From Candidatus Parvarchaeota archaeon (lineage in GTDB: Archaea; Nanobdellota; Nanobdellia; JAFCGN01): 54,465 bases of DNA. The stretch is from contig JAFCGN010000003.1 in NCBI GenBank assembly GCA_017608045.1, positions 1 through 54,465 of the forward strand, read 5' to 3'. The notes under the pieces are model-generated. The model saw only the letters and a list, made by a program, of their open reading frames with translations. It ran no database searches and had not been told where the DNA came from. Position numbers and translations under genes: made by a program. The first letter of the stretch is position 1. The number at the start of each line of letters is the position of its first letter. Of the stretch, positions 32,278 through 53,297 are shown one piece after another.

Positions 32278-32530
32278 TTAATTCCAAGTTCGCTAAAGCA
32301 TCTAATAATCCAAAAATATAAACACAAAGTTCAAATGCTTCAAAATATTTTTTATTTTTCAAAAAATATTCAGCGTCTTCCTTATAACTCATTACTAATT
32401 CCATCACTCTTCCCGCTCTTTTATTCAAAACTTTGAGTTCTCTTATTGCAAAATCCACTCTATTAAATTCTTTTTCAGCCTCTTCTTTCAGAAATTCTTC
32501 ATCACTCTTTTTTAATTTCATTTTTAACAA
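32234..32530 (-). CDS. DUF357 family protein; likely start 32521
   Basis: 'SYKEDAEYFL...YIFGLLDA'. Confidence 0.8.
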   Translation of the reverse strand: MLKMKLKKSDEEFLKEEAEKEFNRVDFAIRELKVLNKRAGRVMELVMSYKEDAEYFLKNKKYFEAFELCVYIFGLLDALANLELIDPGKARKHYKIEQ

Positions 32531-33500
32531 CCTCTTTTATTTTTTCAATTAAAATACATGTTTTGCAAATTTCCCCGCTTGTTGGTTCCCCACAAATTTT
32601 GCATTCTTTTAATTCACTGCTTTTTATTTTATGATTTCTTAGTTTTTTACTTAAAATTGCGTCAAACCAATTTAATATGTTTAATTTAAAATCATATCTC
32701 CTACTTTTCCAAACATACTTGTTTAATGCATTCCTCAATCTATTTCTGTAAGCATCACTTATATTTGGACAACTTCCTTCTATTGTTTTAAAATTATTAA
32801 CTAAAAAATACGCCATACTCTCCTTTTCACTTACTAAACGATAAGGTTTTATTCTTGGTATAAACCCTTTTGGAAAATCTTTTGGTTTAATCCCATTATT
32901 AAATTTGTAATACCCTGTTATTGCACTGCAACGCATTAACTTTTCAAAATCATTTTGAAAAATATTCATAAATATGCTTTGAACCTCATCATCAAGCGTG
33001 TGCGCTGTTGCGAGCCTAACATCATCATATTTTTTATTCATTTTTTTAGCAAACTTATTTATTAACTGCCTGCGAAGCACACCACAATAACTGCATGGTT
33101 TAAGAGGAAATTTATTCATGATTCTTACAACATCATCCATACTAAACCCATATTCTTTTTTAAATTCAATCACGTAATGTTTTACACCAAATTCTTTCGC
33201 ATATTTTTTGGCAAAAAAGATTGATTCATCCCTATACCCTTTAATCCCTTCATTCACGCTCACAGCAATGATTTTGTTTTCAAAATTTTTTGAAAGAACA
33301 TGCATTAATGAAATTGAATCCTTCCCGCCTGAGAGTGCTATTAAGATTGTCGTATTTTTTGAAATCAAACCATATTTTTTAACAGCAAGCTTTACTTTTT
33401 TAGAAACATCTTCAACTAAATGTTTTTCACATAATGATATTTTTTTAGTTGGAGTACTTGCTTCAAAAACTGCTTCTTTATTGCAAAACACGCATTTCAT
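32502..33500 (-). CDS. ttuA: tRNA 2-thiouridine synthase TtuA/Ncs6 (TIGR00269-like)
   Basis: PP-loop 'SGGKDS', 'PCSYCGVLRR', 'TAHTLDDE', and N- and C-terminal Zn-finger CxxC motifs. Confidence 0.9.
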   Translation of the reverse strand: MKCVFCNKEAVFEASTPTKKISLCEKHLVEDVSKKVKLAVKKYGLISKNTTILIALSGGKDSISLMHVLSKNFENKIIAVSVNEGIKGYRDESIFFAKKYAKEFGVKHYVIEFKKEYGFSMDDVVRIMNKFPLKPCSYCGVLRRQLINKFAKKMNKKYDDVRLATAHTLDDEVQSIFMNIFQNDFEKLMRCSAITGYYKFNNGIKPKDFPKGFIPRIKPYRLVSEKESMAYFLVNNFKTIEGSCPNISDAYRNRLRNALNKYVWKSRRYDFKLNILNWFDAILSKKLRNHKIKSSELKECKICGEPTSGEICKTCILIEKIKEVVKNEIKKE

Positions 33501-33502
33501 TT

Positions 33503-33664
33503 TTAACCTCTGCTCACAAAATTAATTATTTCTATTTTATCTCCTTTTTTTATTAATTTGTCGCTTGCTACAAGTTTACCATTTATAGTTATAAGTGCGG
33601 TTTCTGGATTTATTTTATTAATTTTCATATACTCTTTAACACTCATTTGTTTTTTAATTTTCAT
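33503..33664 (-). CDS. ThiS/MoaD/TtuB-like ubiquitin-like sulfur carrier, 53 aa (absent from ORF track)
   Basis: Translates MKIKKQMSVKEYMKINKINPETALITINGKLVASDKLIKKGDKIEIINFVSRG*, with a beta-grasp pattern 'INPE...NG.....L..GD.IEII..VS.G'. It lies 2 nt upstream of the ttuA start. Confidence 0.85.
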   Translation of the reverse strand: MKIKKQMSVKEYMKINKINPETALITINGKLVASDKLIKKGDKIEIINFVSRG

Positions 33665-33713
33665 AAGCAAATTATTTAATTACAAACTTTTAATTATTAT
33701 GTTGTGAATTAAA

Positions 33714-39330: not shown

Positions 39331-39425
39331 GATTTTTATATCTTATTTACATTTTTATTACTTTTTGGGTTTTCAAGAAAAACTTTCGATAGAGTTAAAA
39401 AAACTTGAACATTATATTATACTTG

Positions 39426-39914
39426 ATGAGAAAAAAACTATTATTTTTTGCAATTCCTCTTTTTTTAAACATAGCATTAGCACAATATTATTACCCTTTT
39501 CAACAATCAAGAACCTCTGAGTTAATAAATACTTTTTTAATGAACAATCAAAAACTTGTTTTAAGTCTTGTGTTTGGAATGCTTACTGCTGTTTTTGTTA
39601 ATTTTGCTCTTAGTGGAAAAGACAATCCTTGGAAGAATAATTCACAAAAACAAAATCTTGCTCTTGCTCTTGGGCTTGCTGTTTTTGCTTTCACTTATTT
39701 TTCCACACCTCAGATTCAAATGCCAGCTATTAACATGAGTATTGTAATGAGTTTTTTTATTCTATTATTAATTGGGTATATTGTTTTTAGAATTCTTAAA
39801 AGCGAGAATCTTTCATCACCTGGAATGCTTTTATTCTTAGGGATTTTGCTCATACTTTTTGCAATTCTTGTTCAATACTTGAACACTGGAAGATTTCAAT
39901 TTTCTATTGAGTAA
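39426..39914 (+). CDS. Signal-peptide-bearing multi-TM membrane protein (ORF track start 39405)
   Basis: MRKKLLFFAIPLFLNIALA-like signal peptide followed by about 4 TM helices. Confidence 0.65.
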   Translation: MRKKLLFFAIPLFLNIALAQYYYPFQQSRTSELINTFLMNNQKLVLSLVFGMLTAVFVNFALSGKDNPWKNNSQKQNLALALGLAVFAFTYFSTPQIQMPAINMSIVMSFFILLLIGYIVFRILKSENLSSPGMLLFLGILLILFAILVQYLNTGRFQFSIE

Positions 39915-39987: not shown

Positions 39988-42972
39988 ATGAATTTAATTG
40001 GGGCATTGCTTCCATTTATAGGTTTAACAGGAGCTGTTTTAATAGTTGCTGCTATTATTAAGAGTTTTGGTTCTAATAGAAGTGAAGATAATAGTGACGG
40101 TGCAAATGTTGATTTAAGTGGTGTTGAAAATGCAATAAATAATGTTAATACCAGAATTGATAATATTGTTAATGAATTACAAACTAATAGAACTCAAATA
40201 GAGAACAATAATAATGAAATAATTGCTTCAAGAGATGCTGTTGTTCAAGAAGTGACTAATCTTGCTACAACAATGAATGCAAGATTTGATCAAGTTGATA
40301 CAGCAATAAATGATTTGAGAAATGACATAACCTCTCGTTTTAACAATATTGATAATAATATTGCAACTTTAAGCACTTCTATTAATGAAGTTAATACGCG
40401 TAGCAGAGCAATGAATCAGGTTATAAGAACTTTGCCGCGAAGATTTCATGAAGTTCATAGGCATATGCAGAGCAATTTAAGAAATCTGCGCCAACACATA
40501 ACTCAAACAAGTACAATTACTGATGATTTAATCACTCAACTTATCACAGATTTATACAATTCAATCATGAATAATGTTTATAATCCACTGACTACTCAAA
40601 TAAATGATTTTAGGAATGGTGTTGTTAATTTTTTAGGCCATAACATTATTCCTGCAATTACATCATTTTCTCAAAGTTTAACTCAAATTCTTACTGATTT
40701 AACGAATTTTAGCAACAGATTTAACAATTTCACTACAAATGATTTTCAAACACTTGTTAATACAGTCAATAACTTAAATTCTTTTGTTACATCTGATTTA
40801 AGTGAAGCAGTTGAAAGAAACAGAAGCATGGTTGGCGACGTGTATAATGAATTAATTAATGTTCAAACAAGTCTTTCTGAAAATATAAACAATGCATTGA
40901 GAGACATTCAATCAGAATTAAATGATTTAAGAACTAATGCGGGAGACGCAGAAACTCGTTTTGACAATATTGAGGATGCATTAAATAATATTAATGATGC
41001 AATAAATAATGTGTCTAATACTTTACAACCCCATATTAACAATGTTTCTAAAAATTTTGATGCTGTTAAAAAATCGCTTGGTAAATTAGAAAAAGAACAG
41101 AAAAATGCTAAAAAAGAGTTTGAAAAATTAAACAAATCATTTAAAACTTTTAAAACAAGTGAGTTTCCTAACGCAATTAATGATTTGAAAACAAACATTG
41201 CGCAACTTTCTGCTAAGATTGAACAAGCAATTAAAGATGGCAATAAGGACGTGATTAATGAATTAAAGACTGAAATAAGTGATGCTGAGAATAGGCTTAA
41301 ATCATTAATTAATAATCTGCCTAATGAAATTAAAGAGAGTTTTAATGATGAATTTGAAAAAATAGGAGCAGACTTAAAGGATCTTAAAAAAGGAGTTGAA
41401 GAAAATAAAAAACTAATTGAAAAACATGATAGAGAAATTAAAGATTTTTTGAAAGATATTTTGTCAAGTATTGCAAGTCTTGAAAAAACATTAAGTGGTT
41501 TATCTGAAGATTACAAAAAGCTTGTTGAAGATTACAAGAATGCTATGGAAAAACAAAACCAATTAGGAGAAGAAATTGTGAAATTGTTAAAGGGAATTGA
41601 TGCTAATAAGCTTAATGAGAATATAACAAAACTTGAAGAACTTATTAAACAATTAGAATCTCTTAAAGCTCAAGCGGAATCAGTTAAGAAATCAGAAAGC
41701 ACTGCTGAAGCCGGAGATGTTATTAATAATTATATAGATAACTCTACTAAGATTATTAATAATATTAATAATCAAATTATTGTTATTACTGAATTTTATT
41801 CAACCACAAGAGAGAAGATTCCAAAAATAATTGGTGGTTCAAAATTAACGCAAGAAGAAGAAAAAGAAGTTACGAACTTGGTGTCTCAACTTTTTACAGC
41901 ATTAAGTATAATGGATTCAATAACTGATGAAGTATTGCCTGAAGGTGCAGAATTTCTTATTAACATAAAAAAACTTCTTAAAACTTATTCCAAACAAATG
42001 AAGAAATTGCACGAAACTGCTGTGAATAATTTAAAAGAATATAAAAAAGAAAAATCCAAATCAAATTCTGAAGAAGCAAATAAACTTCATTATTTGTTTG
42101 ATTTTGATTTATTTAAACATGCATTAGACACTCTTGATAGCATGAATTCTAGATTGGACAAAATAAGAAAAATAGAAATAAGGATGGGTTCGCGACGACA
42201 AGTTGAGAGAACCGCTGAAAGAATGGAAGAAGGAAGAACAAGAACAGCGCTTTCAGAAGAAAGTGTTTTAGAAGAAAGTTATTCAATAAAAAAGATGTTC
42301 TACGAAATTGAAGAGAATGTTGTTGGAAGTTTTGAAAGAGTTGTTAGAATTTCTTCTGTTGAAAATTATATTGAGAACCTGCAAGAGTGGTTTTATTTAA
42401 CACAACAAGCGAGTTTTAATCTTAAGTATTTGGAGAGAAGATTAAAAGGAAGTCTTCTTCCCATTACTGAAAATGAGGTTGATTCTTTAAAAGATTTAAT
42501 AGATGAAGAAAAAAATAGATTAAGTAAATCAAAAAAAGATTTTGAAAAAATCACTGGTGAAAATAATCCTAATGAAGAAGAAATAAGTAATGCTATAAAC
42601 GCGCTTACAGAAACAATTGATTATAAAGATGAAGAAAAAACATTTAAGCATTTTGAAACAGTTTTAAAGGAAAACATAAATGAGAAAATAAGGGATTATG
42701 AGGTTTTCACAGAATTCATGACAACATACAAGGACTTGTTGGTTCGCTTGTTTAATTCTTTTGTTATTGATGTTCTTATAAAACACGGAAATAAGAATAA
42801 AGAAGATTATGTTAAATTTTATTTTAAAAAAGCGAGAAGAAGAGGGGATATTGAATCTTCTGACTTAAAAACTGTTTTCGGACACAAGAAATTAAATGTG
42901 TCGGGTGCAAGAATAAATTCTAGGAAATGGAAGAAGCTTACTAAATGGAGCAAAGTAAAAAAAGCAATTTAA
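39988..42972 (+). CDS. Giant (994 aa) N-terminally anchored coiled-coil protein
   Basis: Hydrophobic aa 1-24, then heptad/hendecad repeats (RFDQVDTAIND, RFNNIDNNIAT, RFDNIEDALNN), then K/E-rich helices. Confidence 0.85.
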   Translation: MNLIGALLPFIGLTGAVLIVAAIIKSFGSNRSEDNSDGANVDLSGVENAINNVNTRIDNIVNELQTNRTQIENNNNEIIASRDAVVQEVTNLATTMNARFDQVDTAINDLRNDITSRFNNIDNNIATLSTSINEVNTRSRAMNQVIRTLPRRFHEVHRHMQSNLRNLRQHITQTSTITDDLITQLITDLYNSIMNNVYNPLTTQINDFRNGVVNFLGHNIIPAITSFSQSLTQILTDLTNFSNRFNNFTTNDFQTLVNTVNNLNSFVTSDLSEAVERNRSMVGDVYNELINVQTSLSENINNALRDIQSELNDLRTNAGDAETRFDNIEDALNNINDAINNVSNTLQPHINNVSKNFDAVKKSLGKLEKEQKNAKKEFEKLNKSFKTFKTSEFPNAINDLKTNIAQLSAKIEQAIKDGNKDVINELKTEISDAENRLKSLINNLPNEIKESFNDEFEKIGADLKDLKKGVEENKKLIEKHDREIKDFLKDILSSIASLEKTLSGLSEDYKKLVEDYKNAMEKQNQLGEEIVKLLKGIDANKLNENITKLEELIKQLESLKAQAESVKKSESTAEAGDVINNYIDNSTKIINNINNQIIVITEFYSTTREKIPKIIGGSKLTQEEEKEVTNLVSQLFTALSIMDSITDEVLPEGAEFLINIKKLLKTYSKQMKKLHETAVNNLKEYKKEKSKSNSEEANKLHYLFDFDLFKHALDTLDSMNSRLDKIRKIEIRMGSRRQVERTAERMEEGRTRTALSEESVLEESYSIKKMFYEIEENVVGSFERVVRISSVENYIENLQEWFYLTQQASFNLKYLERRLKGSLLPITENEVDSLKDLIDEEKNRLSKSKKDFEKITGENNPNEEEISNAINALTETIDYKDEEKTFKHFETVLKENINEKIRDYEVFTEFMTTYKDLLVRLFNSFVIDVLIKHGNKNKEDYVKFYFKKARRRGDIESSDLKTVFGHKKLNVSGARINSRKWKKLTKWSKVKKAI

Positions 42973-43032
42973 AGAATAAATAATAATGAATAAACATAAA
43001 ATAAATAAATTATGTTTTTCTTTTGATTATCA

Positions 43033-45216
43033 ATGACAATATCAATTATTTCAGTAATTTCTGCAATTGGCTTAACAGCATTAGGAGGTGCTGGCTTATA
43101 CGCTGCTTATAAATGGGTTGTTAAACACCCTGCAGGAAAGAAAATACGAGTTAAAACAAGAAGAGCGAGCAAGCAGGAGAGAAAGAAAGCAAAGAAAATA
43201 GCTAAAAAAATTCTTAAAGGAAGTTGGAAACTTCTTTCTAGTACTGGCAGGGGAGTGTATTATGTTGCGCCAAGAATATGGCGTGGAACTAAAAAAAGTG
43301 CGAAAACAATAACAGGATCAAGCAAAAAAATTTTTAAAAAAAGTTATAAAACTCTTAAAAACATTTCTTCTTCACTCAAGAAAATCAAGTTCAATAAATT
43401 AAGAAAATTTGTTAAAAAAAAGCAATCAAAAGAAGCATTAGAAGAAACTCAAAAACTTGAAAAAGAAATTAATGAATTAAAAAAAGAAGTTGATGAAATA
43501 TTAGAAGAATTAAAAAATAAGCCTTTTGAAAAAAAAAGTGCAGAAGTAGAAAATATTTCTAATGAATTAGGAGGATTAAGCCGAGGAGTAAGTGCTATTG
43601 AAAACCAAGTAATGGGGAAAGAAAGTATTTCAGACGAGGAATCACAAGTATTATTAGAAGAAATTAAGAAAGTAGAAGAGAGTAAAGAAACATTTGAGAA
43701 GAATTTAGAGAAAGCAATAGAAAGAATAAATGAGTTAGATGAATTAGGAGTAGAATCAGAAGAAGAAAGAGAAATGGAAGAAGAGCAAGAAGGAGTAGGC
43801 AGGAAAACCGAGAGATTGTTAGGTTATTATGAGGGAAGAAGAGGAGAACTTGAAAAAACAAGTTTTGTCATAGAACCTGATGAGAGGATAAGAGATTATA
43901 TTTTAAGAGTGAAAAAAGATTTTGAAAAATTATTCTTTCCATTAATTTTTATTGACCCTTCTGATAATGAAAAAAAATTCAGGGAAGAAGAGTTCAGGTA
44001 CTCTGTTGAAGGATTCAATGCATTAAATGTTGATAATGAAGATTTTATTGAAATTGCTTCAGAATTAGCAACTTCTTTATTGTTTTCCATTATTGAATTA
44101 ATTTCTTCAGAAGAAATCATGAAAAGCAAAATAAAGGAATTGCAGGAGAACCTTGATAAGTTGAAAGAATTTGTTAATGAAAATGAGGATAAAGTTAATA
44201 ATAAAGAAAATGTTTTAAAACTTCTTCAACAATTAATTACTTCTTTAGAGCCTTATGCTAATACCTCGTTTAAAAAAATATACTTTGAAGGAGGAGAGAT
44301 TACCTTAGGAAATTATAAAAAACAATTACGCGATGTTGTAGAATTAATTTGTAATTATAAAAGTTCAGAAGAAACTTCAAGTAAGAATTATAAAGAGGAC
44401 ATAAAAAGTAGTTTAAAAAGAGTTTATAAACACTTTCTTAAAGTGCAAGAGGATTACTTAAAGTTAAAACATTGGGCTGAGAAGAATTTATCATGGTTTG
44501 AAACTCTTGCTAATTCCTTCAAAAATAATGCAGTATTCATGAGTGGTGAAAAAGAAATTAGTGAAAAAGAACCTAAAAAAGAAGCATCAGATAAAGTGAA
44601 GAAAGAAGTTTCAACTTTGATTGAGCAAATAATAACTCAACTTAATGAAATAAAGTTTTATGATGGAAGCGTTCAGGATTATCGTAAATTATTAGAACAT
44701 GTTAAAGAAGGCAGAGGAGGTATTACAGCGAATACTCTTGATGATGTAAAAAATAATATTATTAGACCCATTGATGTTTTAGGAGGATTTTATTATGGAT
44801 ATGATTTCAAAAGTCTTTTACGATTAAACATAAAAACCCTGCCTGAAAAATCAGAAGAGTATATTAAAGAATTCATTAATCAACTTCAAGAAAAAGTAAT
44901 TAAAGGAATGCTTAAGAAAGATGTTGAATTAATAACAGAAGTTATTACTAAAAATCCTTTAATTAATAAAAAAATCAAAAAATCTGTAAATGAATTGAAG
45001 GAAATTGCTTTAAATGCTTTAAAGGGTTATGAGAAGTACTTAAGTTCTTGTGATATTCCTTTATACAAAAAAAGAAGACTGATTTATCTTGATAATAAAA
45101 ATCTTTCTAAACTAATTGGTATTAATTATAAAAAGAAAAGTTTTTTTCCTAAAACACATAAAATATTAAGTGAATGGTTTAGGAAGGAAGCACAAGTTAA
45201 TAAAAAAAACACTTAA
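43033..45216 (+). CDS. 727-aa N-terminally anchored protein with basic region and acidic coiled coil
   Basis: Gly/Ala-rich hydrophobic N-terminus, K/R-rich aa ~28-135, then E-rich heptads. Confidence 0.85.
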   Translation: MTISIISVISAIGLTALGGAGLYAAYKWVVKHPAGKKIRVKTRRASKQERKKAKKIAKKILKGSWKLLSSTGRGVYYVAPRIWRGTKKSAKTITGSSKKIFKKSYKTLKNISSSLKKIKFNKLRKFVKKKQSKEALEETQKLEKEINELKKEVDEILEELKNKPFEKKSAEVENISNELGGLSRGVSAIENQVMGKESISDEESQVLLEEIKKVEESKETFEKNLEKAIERINELDELGVESEEEREMEEEQEGVGRKTERLLGYYEGRRGELEKTSFVIEPDERIRDYILRVKKDFEKLFFPLIFIDPSDNEKKFREEEFRYSVEGFNALNVDNEDFIEIASELATSLLFSIIELISSEEIMKSKIKELQENLDKLKEFVNENEDKVNNKENVLKLLQQLITSLEPYANTSFKKIYFEGGEITLGNYKKQLRDVVELICNYKSSEETSSKNYKEDIKSSLKRVYKHFLKVQEDYLKLKHWAEKNLSWFETLANSFKNNAVFMSGEKEISEKEPKKEASDKVKKEVSTLIEQIITQLNEIKFYDGSVQDYRKLLEHVKEGRGGITANTLDDVKNNIIRPIDVLGGFYYGYDFKSLLRLNIKTLPEKSEEYIKEFINQLQEKVIKGMLKKDVELITEVITKNPLINKKIKKSVNELKEIALNALKGYEKYLSSCDIPLYKKRRLIYLDNKNLSKLIGINYKKKSFFPKTHKILSEWFRKEAQVNKKNT

Positions 45217-47026: not shown

Positions 47027-47704
47027 TCATTTACTTTTTTTACCCTTCTCAACTAAATTGCGGAGTTGTTGAATATTATCACTAAGCGCAGGAATTAATT
47101 TACTCATTGCTTTCTCAACAGCTTGAATTTCTATTTTTGAATCTGTTATTGCCTTTCCATATTCCTCTACTTTCTGCATTGTTTGAGCTTGAATCATATC
47201 CAATCTTGTTTTTAAATCCTTTACTTTATCATTTAAACTATTCACCATGCTTTCTGTTTTATTTCTCCAAACATTAAATCTTTCCATTTCAGATTCTACT
47301 TCCTTCCACCTCTCTCTTATTATTTCTTCAAGTATTCTTTCTATCTCATTCACATCTAATTTTTTCCCACCAACATCACTTACGGGTGCAGTACTTGTTG
47401 GCGCTGTAATTGTTTCAACAGGTGCTTCAGTATTTATTGGACTTGTTGGCGCTGTAGGTGCTTGCTCTATAGGACTTAAATCATTAATGCTTGTTATTTG
47501 TGAACGCAAGTCAAGTTGAGCAAGAGCATCTCTTATTTGTGAAAAAGAATAACCCTGTGCTTTTAATTGATTAATTATTTGTTCATTATTCATTCCACTA
47601 CTTCTTAGAGCTGCAGCTTCTTTTAAAGGAAGCGCGCCTGGAGGAGGCGGACTAACACCACTTATTGCTGCAACTTTCTCCTTTTTTCTTCCAAACAAAC
47701 CCAT
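47027..47704 (-). CDS. Coiled-coil protein with small N-terminal helical bundle and P/T-rich linker
   Basis: MGLFGRKK, SPPPPG, 'QIINQLKAQGYSFSQIRDAL' and C-terminal heptads. Confidence 0.8.
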   Translation of the reverse strand: MGLFGRKKEKVAAISGVSPPPPGALPLKEAAALRSSGMNNEQIINQLKAQGYSFSQIRDALAQLDLRSQITSINDLSPIEQAPTAPTSPINTEAPVETITAPTSTAPVSDVGGKKLDVNEIERILEEIIRERWKEVESEMERFNVWRNKTESMVNSLNDKVKDLKTRLDMIQAQTMQKVEEYGKAITDSKIEIQAVEKAMSKLIPALSDNIQQLRNLVEKGKKSK

Positions 47705-48422: not shown

Positions 48423-50711
48423 ATGGTTGAGAAAAAAAAATTATATTCTTATGAGATAGAGATAGAAGGTAATACAAGAAATCTTGTTATAAATTGTGTG
48501 GGAAGTCTTTATTACCCAAGCATTGAAGATAATGAGTTTTACATGAGCATGGTAATAGGCTATCTCATAGAAACTGGTTTTGTGAATAACATAACATTAG
48601 CAGGGGAAAGAAACTACATTTATACAGAAGAGCAAGCGCAGATGCTTTATGAAATTGCTCAAGCATACACTCATTTAATAAGACAAGAGAAAATAATAAG
48701 TATTGCAAAATTAGGTCCAACAGATTCTGAAAAAAAATTTTTGCCTGAAAGAATTAATACAATGCGTTCCATTGTTTTAGAACTTTTGAGAAGCGATCCA
48801 GTGAGCGCATATGTTAAAGCAATAAGAACATTGCGCGAGCAGAAAGTGAAAATGGAGGCGCTTCCTTTAAAACAAAGATTTATTTTCAAAACTTATGTAA
48901 ATGCTTTAGAAACAGTAATAACTTTACTAGAAAAAACAAGACTAATAAAAAAAGCAAAACCTTTTATTGCAGGACACAAAATAGGGGACAGGGCAATTTA
49001 TAGAGAATTGTTTGAACCTATAATAAAACCAAACTTTATGCTTACACGCCTCATGGCTGAAGCACCACTGAAAGGAGAGGAAGTTGATTCATACAATATT
49101 GGCAAATTCGAGAAAAGCACTGTAGTCATTTACAAACTTCCAAATACTGTTCGGTTAAAATATCATATAAGTCCGCCAGAGTTTAATCTAACTGAAGAAG
49201 AAAACACTCTTTTAACTGATGCGCAAAAAGTATTAAGCAGGTACAAACCAAAAGGCGCGGAATTTGTTGATCCTTCTCGCATGAGAATGGTTTTTTATAA
49301 CATTGCTAAAGACCTTCTTGATGAACTTGCTGTAAGTAAAGGATTGCATATGAAATACAATGAAATTGAAGAGCTTTCAAGAATTCTTGTAAGGCTCACA
49401 GTCGGTTTTGGTTTAATTGAGGTTCTGCTTGAAGACCCTTACATAGAAGACATTTACATTAATGCACCAATTGGACAAACACCTATTTTTTTGAAACACG
49501 CGAAATACGGGGAATGCGAAACAAATATTATTCCAAACATACGAGAGGCGGAAGCATGGGCTTCAAGATTTAGAATGATAAGTCAAAGACCTCTTGATGA
49601 AGCAAATCCTGTTTTAGACACAGAATTATTTTTACCTGCTGCTAGAACAAGAGTTGCAATAATCCAAAGACCCTTGAGTCCGCAAGGTTATTCTTTTGTA
49701 TATAGAAAACACAAACCCACACCATTCACGTTTCCAATGTATATTAATTACAAGTTTTTATCTCCATTAGCAGCAGGATTGCTTTGGTTTTTAACAGATG
49801 GTGCAAGAACAATGATGATTGCAGGCACAAGAGGCACTGGAAAATCAAGTTTGCTTGGATGCATAATAGGAAATATAATGAGAAAATACAGGATAATCAC
49901 TGTTGAAGACACTCTTGAACTGCCCGTGGAGTATTATAGAAAACTTGGTTTTAACATAATACCAATGAAGGTAAGAAGTGCTATTTTAGGAGAGAAATCA
50001 GAACTTAGTGCAGCAGAAGGAGTAAGAACTTCTTTGCGTTTAGGGGATAGTGCGTTAATTGTTGGTGAAGTAAGAAGTAAAGAAGCTCTCGCTCTTTACG
50101 AAGCAATGCGTGTAGGCGCATTAGCTAATGTTGTTGCAGGCACGATTCATGGTGATAGCCCGTACGGTGTTTTTGACAGAGTTGTAAATGATTTAGGAGT
50201 GCCAAGAACAAGTTTTAAAGCAACAGATATAATAATGGTTGCAAATAAAATAAGAGGCGCAGGTCAATTAACAGAAAATAGAAGATTAACTACAATTGCA
50301 GAAGTAAGAAAGCATTGGGAAGAAGACCCTCTTAAAGAACAAGGATTTGTGCATCTCATGGAATATGACTCAAAGAAAGACATGATTATGCCAACAAGTG
50401 CTCTTCTTGATGGGGATTCTGAGGTTGTAAAAAGCATTGCAGGAAAAGTTAGGGATTGGGTTGGAAATTGGGACAGGGTTTGGGATAACATTGTTTTAAG
50501 AGGGAAGATAGCAAAACTAATGGCTGATTATGCTAAGAAACCTGGAAACTCATGGATACAAGAAGCAGATTTTGTTGTGGTTGGAAATGATAATTTTCAC
50601 AAAATATTTGGAGAATTAAAAGAAGAAAGTGGGTATCCAGATAGCAAAGATGTTTTGTTTCAGTTTGAGAATTGGCTTAAAACACAGATAAGAATGAGAA
50701 AGAAAAGGTGA
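48423..50711 (+). CDS. Type IV pilus/type II-IV secretion ATPase (VirB11/TadA/ArlI family)
   Basis: Walker A 'AGTRGTGKSS', Asp box 'ITVEDTLEL', Walker B 'LIVGEVR' and His box 'GTIHG'. Confidence 0.93.
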   Translation: MVEKKKLYSYEIEIEGNTRNLVINCVGSLYYPSIEDNEFYMSMVIGYLIETGFVNNITLAGERNYIYTEEQAQMLYEIAQAYTHLIRQEKIISIAKLGPTDSEKKFLPERINTMRSIVLELLRSDPVSAYVKAIRTLREQKVKMEALPLKQRFIFKTYVNALETVITLLEKTRLIKKAKPFIAGHKIGDRAIYRELFEPIIKPNFMLTRLMAEAPLKGEEVDSYNIGKFEKSTVVIYKLPNTVRLKYHISPPEFNLTEEENTLLTDAQKVLSRYKPKGAEFVDPSRMRMVFYNIAKDLLDELAVSKGLHMKYNEIEELSRILVRLTVGFGLIEVLLEDPYIEDIYINAPIGQTPIFLKHAKYGECETNIIPNIREAEAWASRFRMISQRPLDEANPVLDTELFLPAARTRVAIIQRPLSPQGYSFVYRKHKPTPFTFPMYINYKFLSPLAAGLLWFLTDGARTMMIAGTRGTGKSSLLGCIIGNIMRKYRIITVEDTLELPVEYYRKLGFNIIPMKVRSAILGEKSELSAAEGVRTSLRLGDSALIVGEVRSKEALALYEAMRVGALANVVAGTIHGDSPYGVFDRVVNDLGVPRTSFKATDIIMVANKIRGAGQLTENRRLTTIAEVRKHWEEDPLKEQGFVHLMEYDSKKDMIMPTSALLDGDSEVVKSIAGKVRDWVGNWDRVWDNIVLRGKIAKLMADYAKKPGNSWIQEADFVVVGNDNFHKIFGELKEESGYPDSKDVLFQFENWLKTQIRMRKKR

Positions 50712-52837
50712 TTTTTTTGGCAAAAAAGAAAACCAATGATAAGAATAAACAAGATTATGCAGAAAATGATAATTTGCCTAATTATGAAGGGGTTACTGAT
50801 GAATTAGTTGAAAAATTATTTAAAAAATATGGAGCAAATAAGCCAACAGAAGAAGAAATGAAGATGTCTGCTGAAACATACATTAGGAGTAGAGAATACA
50901 AAATTTTTACAAAAAGAGAAGAGAATAAGTGGGTAAGAAGGTATGAAAAATGGTGCGCTAAAGCACAGAAAATTTTACCAGTAAGTGTTACTGAAGAAGA
51001 AAAAAAAATTGTTAATAAGGCAATTGAAATAAGTGATTTAAAAGTTACTCCAGAAGGTGTTGCAAGTTTTAGTTTTATTGTTTTTGCTATTTTCTTAGTT
51101 TTTTCTTTGATAACTGCACTAATCTCGCCTTTATTTATGATTTTATTTGCTGTTATAGGATATGCTGTATTCAATTATTTAAAAAAATATCCTAAAAAAG
51201 CTGTTGAAAATGCGCAAGTAAAGGCAAGCGGTGAAACAATTCTTGCTGTTTTATATCTTGTTATTTACATGAGGCACACGCCAAATATGGAGGCTGCGGT
51301 TAAATTTGCAAGCGATAATCTTACAGGTCCTCTTGCTAATAGTTTCAGAAAGCTTTTATGGGATGTTCAATCGAGAAAATATAAAAATATTAGCGAAGCA
51401 TTAGATGCTTACACAAAAGAATGGGGGGAGTTTAATAAACCATTTACTGATGCCATATACTTGATTGAATCTTCAATGTATCAGACAAAAGAAGAGCACA
51501 GAAAGGATTTACTTAATCGCGCTCTTGATAGGATTCTTGACGGCACATTTGAAAGAATGAGCACGTACGCGCATTCATTGAAAACCCCTGTTGACACTAT
51601 TTATACAATGGGTATTATCCTGCCAGTATTAGGATTAGTTATGTTTCCAATGCTTGCTGCTTTTATGAGTGACATGGTTAAACCGCAAACCATTGCTATT
51701 TTTTATAATATCATGCTCCCCATTTTTGTTTTATTTTTTGAAAAATTAATTTTTATGAAAAGACCTGTTGGATTCCCAACTCCTGACATAAGTAATCATC
51801 CTGATATGCCTAAAAAAGGATGTTTTAAAATGGGGGGTAAAAATGTAAAAGCATGGCCTATAAGTTTGTTAATCCTTTTAATTGGCGTAATACCATTTAT
51901 TATGTATTTAACAAATGCACCATCTCAACCATCTGAAAAAGACATATTCATTAGTTTACTCCCTATTTTTGGAATTGCTTTTAGCATATGGTTTTATACA
52001 AAAAACATTAGTGCTCCAAGACTCAAAATTTTGAAAAAAGTAACAAGTGTGGAAAAAGAATTAGCAGATGCGCTTTTTCAATTAGGGATGAGAATTGGAG
52101 AAGGCAATCCACCGGAAATTGCAGTTCAAAAAGTTGCTGCAGTGATGAGGGAAAGTGAAACAGCAATGTTTTTTAAGAAAATCACAGTGAATATGAAAAG
52201 ATTAGGATATAGTTTTGAAAGAGCAATATTTGATGAAAATTATGGAGCAATACTTTTTTACCCTTCTCCAATGCTTAAAAGCGTGATGGAAGTTTTAGTA
52301 AGTTCAAGCAATAAAAGTCTTGAAGTTGCCGCAGTTAGCATGATAAATATTGCAAGATATTTGCAAAACATTGGAAGAATAAATGACAAAGTTGTGGATA
52401 TACTAAGTGATACTGTTTCTGGAATTAAATTTCAGGCAAGCGTTATTACGCCTATTGTTAGTGGAGTTGTTGTTGGATTAACTTCTTTAATAATAATTAT
52501 TTTATCCTTGCTTTCTTCCAAAATGGAAGAACTTAGTGCATTAAGCGGAGGAGATTTAGGTCCCTGGGCATTAGGCATGTTTAGTATGAGTGGTTCAGTG
52601 CCACTTTATTTGTTTCAGCCAATAGTTGGCATTTATTTAATAGAGATTGTGCTCTTAATTGGTTCCCTTGATGCTGATATTGAAACAAATGGTCATCCCT
52701 TATATAGAAACAATATAATTTCTAAATTAATCCTTCCCGCAGTTATTATCTATGCAATTGTTGGTGTTGCTTTAACAGTTATTTTTGGAGGATTAGGAAA
52801 AGCTGCTTTAGCAATAGGAGGCTCTTTTGGTGTTTAA
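50708..52837 (+). CDS. Type IV pilus membrane platform protein (TadC/ArlJ-like, two T2SS-F-like domains); likely TTG start 50717
   Basis: Multi-TM protein with 'PNMEAAVKFA', 'ELADALFQLG...GNPPE'; overlaps the ATPase stop; SD AGGTGA. Confidence 0.85.
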   Translation: MIFLAKKKTNDKNKQDYAENDNLPNYEGVTDELVEKLFKKYGANKPTEEEMKMSAETYIRSREYKIFTKREENKWVRRYEKWCAKAQKILPVSVTEEEKKIVNKAIEISDLKVTPEGVASFSFIVFAIFLVFSLITALISPLFMILFAVIGYAVFNYLKKYPKKAVENAQVKASGETILAVLYLVIYMRHTPNMEAAVKFASDNLTGPLANSFRKLLWDVQSRKYKNISEALDAYTKEWGEFNKPFTDAIYLIESSMYQTKEEHRKDLLNRALDRILDGTFERMSTYAHSLKTPVDTIYTMGIILPVLGLVMFPMLAAFMSDMVKPQTIAIFYNIMLPIFVLFFEKLIFMKRPVGFPTPDISNHPDMPKKGCFKMGGKNVKAWPISLLILLIGVIPFIMYLTNAPSQPSEKDIFISLLPIFGIAFSIWFYTKNISAPRLKILKKVTSVEKELADALFQLGMRIGEGNPPEIAVQKVAAVMRESETAMFFKKITVNMKRLGYSFERAIFDENYGAILFYPSPMLKSVMEVLVSSSNKSLEVAAVSMINIARYLQNIGRINDKVVDILSDTVSGIKFQASVITPIVSGVVVGLTSLIIIILSLLSSKMEELSALSGGDLGPWALGMFSMSGSVPLYLFQPIVGIYLIEIVLLIGSLDADIETNGHPLYRNNIISKLILPAVIIYAIVGVALTVIFGGLGKAALAIGGSFGV

Positions 52838-53297
52838 AAAAATGAATAAAATGTTAATTAGTTTAACTGCAAGGTCTCAAATAAACGTTGATTTGGTTGT
52901 GATAATTATGAGTATAGTAATTTTAGCCATGTCCATTGCTGTTGTTCTTTTTATTGCAGGGCCTTCTTTGAAAGATAAAGGCGGGTGCAATAATAATTGC
53001 ATATGTGAAGATAGTTTGGTTGATCCTTCTTTAAAAGGCACAGAAAATGACAGGCATGAAACAAAATATAATTGTTTCCCCCCTTTTTCAAATGATTGTT
53101 GCAAAGACGATGATGAAAATGTTTTTGATTGTGTTGATATTAATAAGATATCCCCAATGGATTATGATCCTGCGTGTTTTGATACAGTAACAATTTTTGA
53201 TAATGACGGCGTGTGCAGTTATTTTGAACCTTGTGATTCAATTGATTGTTCAAATAAGGACAACAAAGGCGCAAGTAGGTGCTATCCAACAGATTAA
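52827..53297 (+). CDS. Pilin-like protein with class III-like signal and 12-Cys acidic head
   Basis: 'ARS|QINVD' followed by a hydrophobic helix; 12 Cys in the C-terminal ~100 aa. Confidence 0.65.
   Translation: MVFKKMNKMLISLTARSQINVDLVVIIMSIVILAMSIAVVLFIAGPSLKDKGGCNNNCICEDSLVDPSLKGTENDRHETKYNCFPPFSNDCCKDDDENVFDCVDINKISPMDYDPACFDTVTIFDNDGVCSYFEPCDSIDCSNKDNKGASRCYPTD

Follow-up and report, generated by a model that had tools for sequence, protein, structure and literature searches.

Introduction

Lysine deserts, which by the criterion of Szulc et al. 2023 are Lys-free stretches of at least 150 amino acids (aa), have so far been tied to ubiquitin- or Pup-dependent proteolysis, in eukaryotes and in Actinobacteria of high guanine-cytosine (GC) content, where the low Lys content is partly mutational (PMC10665810, PMC10169902). 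The known deserts lie mostly in disordered regions beside activated ubiquitin or Pup, or belong to high-GC, Lys-poor proteomes (PMC10665810, PMC10169902). A related case is that of the catalytic chains of AB toxins (ricin A, cholera toxin A1, pertussis S1), from which Lys has been removed and in which Arg has been retained, a pattern that was read as an escape from tagging (PMC10665810). Archaea are mentioned 0 times by Szulc et al. 2023 (PMC10665810), and our literature search found no paper on lysine deserts in archaea. Here, we describe a lysine desert of 329 aa in a membrane-anchored, all-helical orphan protein of 994 aa, which is encoded in a stretch of 54,465 nucleotides (nt) from a Candidatus Parvarchaeota archaeon (contig JAFCGN010000003.1, hereafter "the window").

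The window is archaeal, as it codes for Orc1/Cdc6, FEN1, and the AglB/STT3 oligosaccharyltransferase; its GC content runs from 26 to 34% (genome, 28%), and it yielded no tRNA or Rfam match. Metagenome runs that contain the sequence stem from hydrothermal vents and marine sediment, and the source is an uncultured, small, low-GC archaeon of DPANN type from hydrothermal sediment. An earlier note on this DNA had singled out positions 39988-41049 as a fusogen- or adhesin-like stalk. This segment corresponds to residues 1 to 354 of the open reading frame (ORF) of the 994-aa protein (Table 1). The ATG of this ORF is the first possible start after the upstream stop codon, and both homologues (see below) begin identically; as there is no earlier in-frame start, an N-terminal extension is impossible.

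A lysine-free run of 329 residues

Lysine occurs in the 994-aa protein at position 25 and then at positions 355, 361, 362, and onward, and the 329-residue Lys-free run between K25 and K355 that the earlier note had pointed out is thus confirmed. The surroundings are as Lys-rich as that note had stated: Lys accounts on average for 10.2% of residues in the 44 ORFs of the window, and at this frequency the probability of finding no Lys in 329 residues is 4e-16 (3e-13 for the 269-aa core that is common to all homologues; see below). The longest Lys-free runs in the other ORFs reach at most 102 aa and are located in polytopic membrane proteins. The abrupt switch to sequence rich in Lys and Glu is real as well, with 12 Lys in residues 351 to 400 and with 14.5% Lys and 12.5% Glu in the remaining 640 residues of the protein, which as a whole lacks any Cys.

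Avoidance of Lys acts at the level of the protein. The codons AAA and AAG occur 0 times in frame within the desert versus 50 times in the other two frames, and 138 of the 329 codons lie a single substitution away from a Lys codon. We rejected an overlapping gene or RNA as the cause, given the normal out-of-frame AAA/AAG count and the absence of an Rfam match; no other ORF of at least 50 aa runs across most of the desert, and a minus-strand ORF of 111 aa (40908-41243) overlaps only its last ~140 nt with its 3′ end. The target of a diversity-generating retroelement was likewise rejected: The gene is most conserved in the desert itself, the window holds no template-like repeat, and a reverse-transcriptase domain was found in none of its 44 listed ORFs of at least 120 aa.

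The composition of the desert (18.5% Asn, 10.0% Thr, 8.8% Ile, 7.3% Asp, 6.7% Arg, and 4.9% Gln) bears out the earlier description as rich in Asn and Thr, whereas Ile is not enriched. Arg is doubled compared to the window mean of 3.3%, despite the AT-rich genome. The four residues most enriched in the core are Gln (2.7-fold), Asn (2.7-fold), Thr (2.4-fold), and Arg (2.0-fold), whose codons CAR, AAY, ACR, and AGR are single-nucleotide neighbors of the Lys codons AAR, and the Asn content of the desert is close to that of Lys and Asn together in the window (16.8%). Because an AT-biased genome that is barred from Lys codons would shift to such one-step neighbors, we infer that Asn, Thr, Gln, and Arg are in excess mostly as a consequence of Lys exclusion and that their abundance need not signal a polar-zipper or glycosylation function. 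An N-glycosylated stalk was rejected on its own grounds, as the 7 sequons present, versus 10.9 ± 2.7 expected, do not amount to an enrichment.

The hydrophobic periodicity of the desert (3.55 for residues 26 to 150, 3.7 for 151 to 260, and 3.6 for 261 to 354) is that of amphipathic helices of heptad- to hendecad-like type. An 11-residue tandem repeat did not hold up: The two 11-mers that had been quoted for it, at residues 99 to 109 and 117 to 127, are spaced by 18 residues and share a loose RF[DN]x[VI][DE] motif, a self-comparison of the 994-aa protein gave no significant internal repeat, and at the DNA level, there is only one weak similarity of 66 nt.

Homologues keep the lysine-free core

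Homologues are scarce. A word-indexed search of 5.8 G clustered proteins, an exhaustive hidden Markov model search of 1.84 G representatives with an N-terminal profile, a search with a profile of the two C-terminal alleles described below, and scans of GTDB genomes and of Joint Genome Institute metagenome contigs together returned two full-length homologues, P0001 and P0002, and a fragment of the window's own gene. Another 16 weak matches (E values from 1e-8 to 1e-3) were RFxxVD-repeat proteins and phage tape-measure or tail proteins, which we rejected as compositional. P0001 is 65% identical to the window protein overall and 98% over residues 1 to 360; for P0002, the values are 60 and 82%.

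Both full-length homologues conserve the desert, and neither shows a normal Lys content in this part. P0001 retains all 329 aa, while P0002 has Lys at positions 31, 33, and 35 and then from 305 onward, which leaves a Lys-free core of 269 aa (residues 36 to 304); the length criterion for a lysine desert is thus exceeded in all three proteins. The extra 50 Lys-free residues of the window protein and P0001 are specific to their lineage. Between the window and P0002, 0 of 38 substitutions within the core involve Lys, versus 31 of 81 in residues 305 to 600 (Fisher p = 8e-7), so that in these three sequences, the Lys-free state itself is conserved. The positive-charge gains in the core both went to Arg (T232R and Q233R). 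The ratio of nonsynonymous (dN) to synonymous (dS) divergence is lowest in the gene for the core (0.27 to 0.29), versus 0.55 to 0.64 for residues 355 to 612 and 0.5 to 0.9 overall for the other segments. With a synonymous divergence of ~0.3, the core has had time to change. We conclude from these comparisons that residues 36 to 304 are the most conserved part of the protein, that Arg supplies the positive charges there, and that selection acts specifically against Lys. Both homologues keep the desert and selection maintains it, and it is thus no accident of composition.

A predicted bundle of four long helices

AlphaFold2 modeled residues 30 to 400 with a mean predicted local distance difference test score (pLDDT) of 87.7 and a predicted template modeling score of 0.67. 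The model predicts that the core folds, together with residues 305 to 390, as a bundle of four long helices at residues 44 to 174, 179 to 244, 251 to 316, and 318 to 390 (131, 66, 66, and 73 residues). Judged from these lengths, the second half of helix 1 would pack with helices 2 to 4, which would leave its first half as a membrane-proximal stalk. We read the four helices as folding back on each other, and the one continuous helix that a single stalk would call for is thus not what the model gives. The border between Lys-free and Lys-rich sequence does not coincide with a helix boundary but falls within helix 4 in the window protein and within helix 3 in P0002. A full-length model was all-helical but unreliable (pLDDT, 44.5), and a Foldseek search with it was meaningless.

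With the model of residues 30 to 400, a Foldseek search of PDB returned nothing at E < 1e-3; the top-ranking structures, all with TM scores below 0.4, were designed helical bundles, XaxB, MakA, TolC-like barrels, chemoreceptors, and BDLP. The BFVD matches were phage tail, tape-measure, and unnamed helical proteins only, and the single one below the E cutoff had a TM score of 0.23.

Family searches gave a similar picture, as Pfam, NCBIfam, PHROGs, and PADLOC returned only generic coiled-coil matches for the 994-aa protein, among them SMC, Rad50, EzrA, the ZorA tail, LmuB, JetC, and tape-measure proteins. Two Pfam families scored above their gathering cutoffs, namely Baculo_PEP_C (PF04513; 47.8 bits, cutoff 38) and ATG17_like (PF04108; 55.4 bits, cutoff 43), with whole-protein scores that are summed over several Asn-rich coiled-coil stretches, and the same two names appear in the precomputed annotations of the homologues. 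As unrelated RFxxVD-repeat coiled coils match both families, these annotations are likely compositional false positives. The EzrA family (PF06160) was rejected, with scores below cutoff in both Pfam (21.4 versus 39.6 bits) and NCBIfam (31.8 versus 556 bits).

One patch within the desert stands out by its composition. Residues 138 to 170 (TRSRAMNQVIRTLPRRFHEVHRHMQSNLRNLRQH), at the distal end of helix 1, hold 9 Arg and 4 His and no Lys, and might possibly form a phosphate- or metal-binding site. The patch sits in a block of 56 residues (120 to 175) that shows no change between the window and P0002, while P0001 departs from it at positions 151 and 152.

An N-terminal membrane anchor with a probably cytoplasmic bulk

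The hydrophobic N-terminus that the earlier note had described is real: Residues 1 to 24 are the sole hydrophobic segment of the protein (no other stretch exceeds a 19-residue Kyte-Doolittle mean of 1.2), and the anchor is identical in the three sequences except for I19V. No Lys or Arg precedes this transmembrane (TM) segment, while within the 11 residues behind it, there are two (window and P0001) or four (P0002). By the positive-inside rule, the basic flank of a TM segment lies in the cytoplasm. Since Lys and Arg occur only on the C-terminal flank, an N-out/C-in orientation is predicted, and the bulk of the protein is probably cytoplasmic.

Exported proteins of the window do carry basic n-regions, as seen in a signal-anchored protein of 124 aa (N-terminus, MKKKISEEKIKK) and in a pilin-like protein (N-terminus, MVFKKMNK). 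The adhesin stalk of the earlier note finds no support here, given that the protein has no charged n-region, that its basic residues come only after the TM segment, and that sequons are not in excess. An extracellular location does not by itself account for the absence of Lys either, as the external AglB domain encoded in the window contains 6.25% Lys. We further rejected a trimeric autotransporter adhesin (the prediction is all-helical, there is no YadA-type Pfam or NCBIfam match, and this archaeon has no outer membrane) and a component of a type IV pilus or archaellum (there is no basic n-region or prepilin cleavage motif and no family match, and the ATPase gene lies 5.4 kb downstream).

Two C-terminal alleles coexist on a common lysine-free module

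The C-terminal part of the protein behaves very differently from its N-terminal part. Between the window and P0001, the N-terminal 400 residues are near-identical (dS = 0.05), while after residue ~612, the identity drops to ~30% (dS = 1.26, dN = 0.65). P0001 and P0002 show the reverse, with dS = 0.28 in the N-terminal part and last 385 codons that are identical in DNA (0 synonymous differences). The boundaries of the replacement lie at ~41830 and 42885 of the window, and the alternative cassette is found at 11826-12943 of contig L001 and at 3017-4134 of contig L002. On both contigs, a remnant of the 3′ end of the window-type gene (window 42885-43085, 90 to 95% match) persists 3′ of the alternative cassette (L001, 13247-13449; L002, 4355-4405). 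Because this remnant has persisted downstream, the comparison indicates that the alternative cassette entered a gene of the window type by insertion and displaced the C-terminal coding part of that gene. No silent copy of the alternative cassette is present in the window.

Metagenome assemblies put both forms into one population. In Logan contigs of one vent metagenome (run X1), the N-terminal part forms one contig with a depth of 79.8, which splits at 41773-41824 into a window-type cassette (depth 15.7) and another branch (depth 48.7) with the P0001/P0002 sequence; the branches rejoin at 42885 (depth 66.4). A second run (X2) splits likewise. Two diverged, homologous C-terminal alleles are thus present side by side in one population, attached to the same Lys-free module, and the difference between them is a recombinational cassette replacement that is maintained as a polymorphism.

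Neighboring genes

The 994-aa gene, which has a TATA-like A/T-rich box (TTTTTAAA) ~30 nt 5′ of its ATG, belongs to a string of six same-strand genes with gaps of 0 to 73 nt that encode, in this order, a small polytopic protein, the 994-aa and 727-aa proteins, and three paralogues with ~5 TM segments (Table 1). This gene order is kept in a related strain (contigs L001 and L004, which overlap by 141 identical nt) and on contig L002 as far as it reaches. No known family was matched by any of the six encoded proteins, and for the four small membrane proteins this covers Pfam, NCBIfam, PHROGs, and PADLOC.

In its design, the 727-aa protein matches the 994-aa one: It has a TM segment at residues 3 to 25 without an n-region, followed at residues 26 to 135 (43108-43437) by 32 Lys and 8 Arg with 2 acidic residues (net charge +38). 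By the positive-inside rule, this polybasic stretch would clearly have to be cytoplasmic and could hardly lie outside. The one homologue found is encoded at the corresponding place in the related strain. We detected no paralogy between the 727-aa and 994-aa proteins (E of at least 0.03), which may be charge-complementary partners.

Further downstream come two small coiled-coil genes on the opposite strand. The 225-aa protein matches Pfam UBA below threshold (E = 0.022), and its gene adjoins that of a 133-aa coiled-coil protein. A pilus- or archaellum-like locus (48423-53297) comprises the FlaI/TadA-like ATPase, a polytopic protein of 709 aa without a family match that occupies the place expected of a platform protein, and a Cys-rich protein of 156 aa that is pilin-like in having a basic n-region and a hydrophobic stretch. 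A link between the 994-aa gene and this locus is possible. Upstream lies a ~30-kb glycan and glycosylation island (326-31091) with glycosyltransferases of families GT1, GT2, and GT4, nucleoside-diphosphate-sugar enzymes, a Wzx-like flippase, three PMT_2-type transferases, and AglB/STT3. Between this island and the gene string, there is a ThiS/MoaD-like beta-grasp ORF of 55 aa (33503-33670, minus strand), which ends in VSRG and not in Gly-Gly, lies directly upstream of a PP-loop ATPase gene (32502-33500), and has a counterpart on L001 that weakly matches PF02597. The two are probably a sulfur-carrier pair for tRNA thiolation and do not count as evidence for protein tagging. No E1, JAMM, or proteasome gene is present in the 54-kb window.

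Table 1. Features of the 994-aa gene and its surroundings. Positions refer to the window.
Position	Strand	Feature	Basis
39405..39914	+	Upstream small polytopic membrane protein, 169 aa; conserved beside the 994-aa gene, weakly related to the ~5-TM trio	
39988..42972	+	Gene of the 994-aa all-helical orphan protein with N-terminal membrane anchor	ORF
39988..40062	+	Residues 1-25: single TM anchor MNLIGALLPFIGLTGAVLIVAAII and invariant K25	Hydropathy, three-sequence alignment
40063..41049	+	Residues 26-354: 329-aa Lys-free run (window and P0001)	Lys positions
40093..40899	+	Residues 36-304: Lys-free core common to all three homologues	Alignment
40117..41157	+	Residues 44-390: predicted bundle of four long helices	AlphaFold2 of residues 30-400
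40399..40497	+	Residues 138-170: Arg/His-rich patch	Sequence
41050..41823	+	Residues 355-612: K/E-rich helical, coiled-coil-like middle region	Composition; low-confidence full-length model
41824..42884	+	Residues ~613-966: polymorphic C-terminal cassette, window-type allele	Allele comparison
43033..45216	+	Downstream 727-aa protein: N-terminal TM, polybasic stretch, E/K-rich helices	
45287..47015	+	Three paralogous ~5-TM small membrane proteins (174, 193, 187 aa)	Pairwise BLASTP (E 1e-11 to 2e-5), hydropathy
47027-47704	-	225-aa protein: candidate UBA/TS-N-like helix pair (~residues 40-62), Pro/Thr-rich linker, coiled coil	
48423-50711		FlaI/TadA-like ATPase, 762 aa, with ~300-aa N-terminal extension; beyond two opposite-strand genes	

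What may exclude lysine from the bundle

At protein interfaces, no residue is tolerated less than Lys, while Arg is among the most favored. As to the cause of the Lys exclusion, we infer tentatively, and short of calling it probable, that the 994-aa protein is a cytoplasmic, membrane-tethered protein whose Lys-free module is a buried base for assembly or docking. The single TM helix (residues 1 to 24) would tether the protein to the cytoplasmic face of the membrane, like its polybasic 727-aa partner, and helix packing in homo- or hetero-oligomers would bury most of the surface of the Lys-free module. This would explain the exclusion of Lys, because buried interfaces disfavor Lys and favor Arg. 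The exposed, fast-evolving end of the protein that sets its specificity would consist of the K/E-rich coiled coil together with the dimorphic C-terminal domain.

Several points weigh against this explanation. The predicted topology draws on the positive-inside rule only, and in the window protein and P0001, the net charge of the flank behind the TM segment is ambiguous, as it also holds three acidic residues. The acidic composition of the desert, rich in Asn, Thr, and Ser and poor in Lys, resembles that of archaeal surface proteins, and a C-terminus that is dimorphic within a population fits exposed proteins better. A complete lack of Lys over 269 residues goes beyond the depletion that interfaces ordinarily show. 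Moreover, helix 4 and the end of helix 3, both part of this bundle in the model, do accept Lys, and a fully buried surface can therefore not hold for the bundle as a whole. The model itself is that of a monomer and was built from a three-sequence alignment, and the conservation analysis draws on three sequences only, of which two hardly differ in this part.

The same cytoplasmic, tethered scaffold could owe its lack of Lys to chemistry instead, if Lys were barred to avoid Lys-directed reactions (conjugation of the SAMP/Urm1/TtuB type, acylation, or cross-linking) on a module that is long-lived or close to an enzyme. An exclusion that is absolute and specific to Lys, with Arg doubled, speaks for chemistry rather than charge, and its edges in P0002 (K35 and K305) are sharp. 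Deserts for which such a rationale was proposed are documented in proteins of the eukaryotic ubiquitin-proteasome system and in pupylating Actinobacteria (PMC10665810, PMC10169902), and the ThiS-like beta-grasp ORF beside the PP-loop ATPase gene lies 6 kb upstream. This ORF, however, ends in Arg-Gly and has a neighbor that suggests tRNA thiolation, and the window holds none of the E1-like, JAMM, or proteasome genes that such a system would bring along. The known deserts are mostly disordered, whereas a confidently folded bundle is predicted here, and there is as yet no reason why one protein among 44 should be protected. We regard a chemical cause as unlikely, if worth considering.

Doubtful to a similar degree is a surface protein of type II (N-in/C-out), in which the desert would be a membrane-proximal extracellular stalk that shuns Lys-reactive chemistry, Lys-specific proteases, or cross-linking, with the dimorphic C-terminal domain as a distal tip that would contact a variable partner, for instance a host cell or a virus. 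This reading takes up the adhesin-like side of the earlier note. Its acidic, Asn/Thr/Ser-rich, and Cys-free composition would suit such a stalk, and so would the coexistence of two ~30%-identical C-terminal alleles on one N-terminal module, which is common in exposed proteins, as well as the location of the gene, which has a 30-kb glycosylation island that includes AglB on one side and a type-IV-pilus-like ATPase locus on the other. If acidic residues are counted, even the charge difference across the TM segment would allow N-in for two of the three proteins. Yet the protein lacks the basic n-region of the exported window proteins, P0002 has four Lys right behind its TM segment, and a further 640 residues with 14.5% Lys and 12.5% Glu would need to be exported. 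Sequons are not enriched, an outside location needs no desert (as the 6.25% Lys of the external AglB domain demonstrates), and the abundant Arg would leave cleavage by trypsin-like proteases possible. The 727-aa operon partner, finally, would clearly be cytoplasmic.

Quite unlikely, in our estimate, is a broader reading in which the bundle would be a device of a host-dependent DPANN archaeon that is hardened against Lys-directed attack at or beyond the cell boundary, or beside ubiquitin-like tagging, with the C-terminus setting specificity for a host or virus.

The fusogen proposed in the earlier note is very improbable. It would take the Gly/Ala-rich N-terminus as a class-I-like fusion peptide and the Asn-rich heptads as a heptad repeat 1 (HR1) that merges the membranes of symbiont and host, and DPANN archaea are, as general background, known for intimate host contacts. 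The PDB profile search did list coronavirus HR1, HA2, and a designed t-SNARE, although at non-significant E values of 0.015 to 0.9, and Pfam CoV_S2 scored 16.4 bits versus a cutoff of 40; unrelated RFxxVD-repeat proteins yield the same coiled-coil family matches. The protein has one hydrophobic segment and no C-terminal TM anchor, and no HR2-like partner was identified, so that the second anchor and second heptad region of a two-membrane hairpin are both missing. A signal peptide with a cleaved precursor does not fit either, since the ORF opens at the hydrophobic stretch with no in-frame start upstream, and no receptor-binding subunit precedes it. The modeled helices are four separate ones and not a single trimer-forming helix, and no viral fusion protein was among the Foldseek matches at E < 1e-3 in PDB or BFVD.

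A chance or compositional Lys-free run without selection on Lys, which the low-complexity helical sequence and the small number of known sequences might suggest, is refuted by the probability of ~4e-16, the substitution test, the frequent out-of-frame AAA/AAG and one-step codons, and the free gain of Lys in the flanks of P0002.

Discussion

Base composition cannot explain this desert, as it lies in a predicted folded domain, in a genome with 28% GC and a proteome with 10% Lys, and is accompanied by substitution evidence for selection. Should the cause be structural, the protein would represent an extreme case of the interface-driven exclusion of one amino acid; should it be chemical, it would point to an uncharacterized Lys-directed process in DPANN archaea. 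If the device of a host-dependent archaeon were the true explanation, this would be the first archaeal lysine desert with a role in the interaction between cells. The desert also illustrates that barring one residue in an AT-biased genome can yield sequence that seems to be of low complexity and rich in Asn, Thr, and Gln. Its coexisting C-terminal alleles, in turn, show this orphan protein to be under diversifying or frequency-dependent selection, and it belongs to a DPANN-type group whose cell biology is almost unknown.

In architecture, the 994-aa protein resembles two membrane-anchored scaffolds of the cytoplasm, bacterial EzrA and the crenarchaeal archaellum scaffold FlaX, which likewise have a short N-terminal TM segment, basic residues, and then long helical bundles or coiled coils. 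As for FlaX, a FlaI-like ATPase locus is near. The 994-aa protein differs from FlaX in being much larger and in that five genes, two of them on the opposite strand, intervene before the ATPase gene. Neither EzrA nor FlaX is known to have a Lys desert. With the HR1 coiled coils of class I fusion proteins and with SNARE helices, it shares polar heptads rich in Asn, Gln, Thr, and Ser that adjoin a hydrophobic segment, while the matches are non-significant, a second anchor, an HR2, and a fusion peptide exposed by cleavage are absent, and the topology is probably cytoplasmic.

The replaceable C-terminus invites comparison with CdiA-CT and Rhs-CT. Unlike in those systems, the cassettes are homologous to each other (~30% identity, E = 3e-41), no immunity-like gene comes next, and there is no match to a toxin family. 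What is shared is a conserved N-terminal body, a C-terminal part of ~380 aa that can be replaced, a displaced 3′ relic, and alleles that coexist.

The Lys-free part compares with the AB-toxin chains in that Lys is removed and Arg is kept, but those are small enzymes that enter a foreign cytosol, whereas here, the Lys-free part is proximal to the membrane, and the distal end, which would be the likeliest to come into contact with another cell, is Lys-rich. The deserts of the ubiquitin-proteasome system and of pupylating Actinobacteria are similar in consisting of at least 150 Lys-free residues, in being conserved, in belonging to a protein that otherwise uses Lys, and in their selective origin. 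Unlike them, the present desert would form a folded helical bundle, and it belongs to an orphan membrane protein of an archaeon with 28% GC and 10% Lys.

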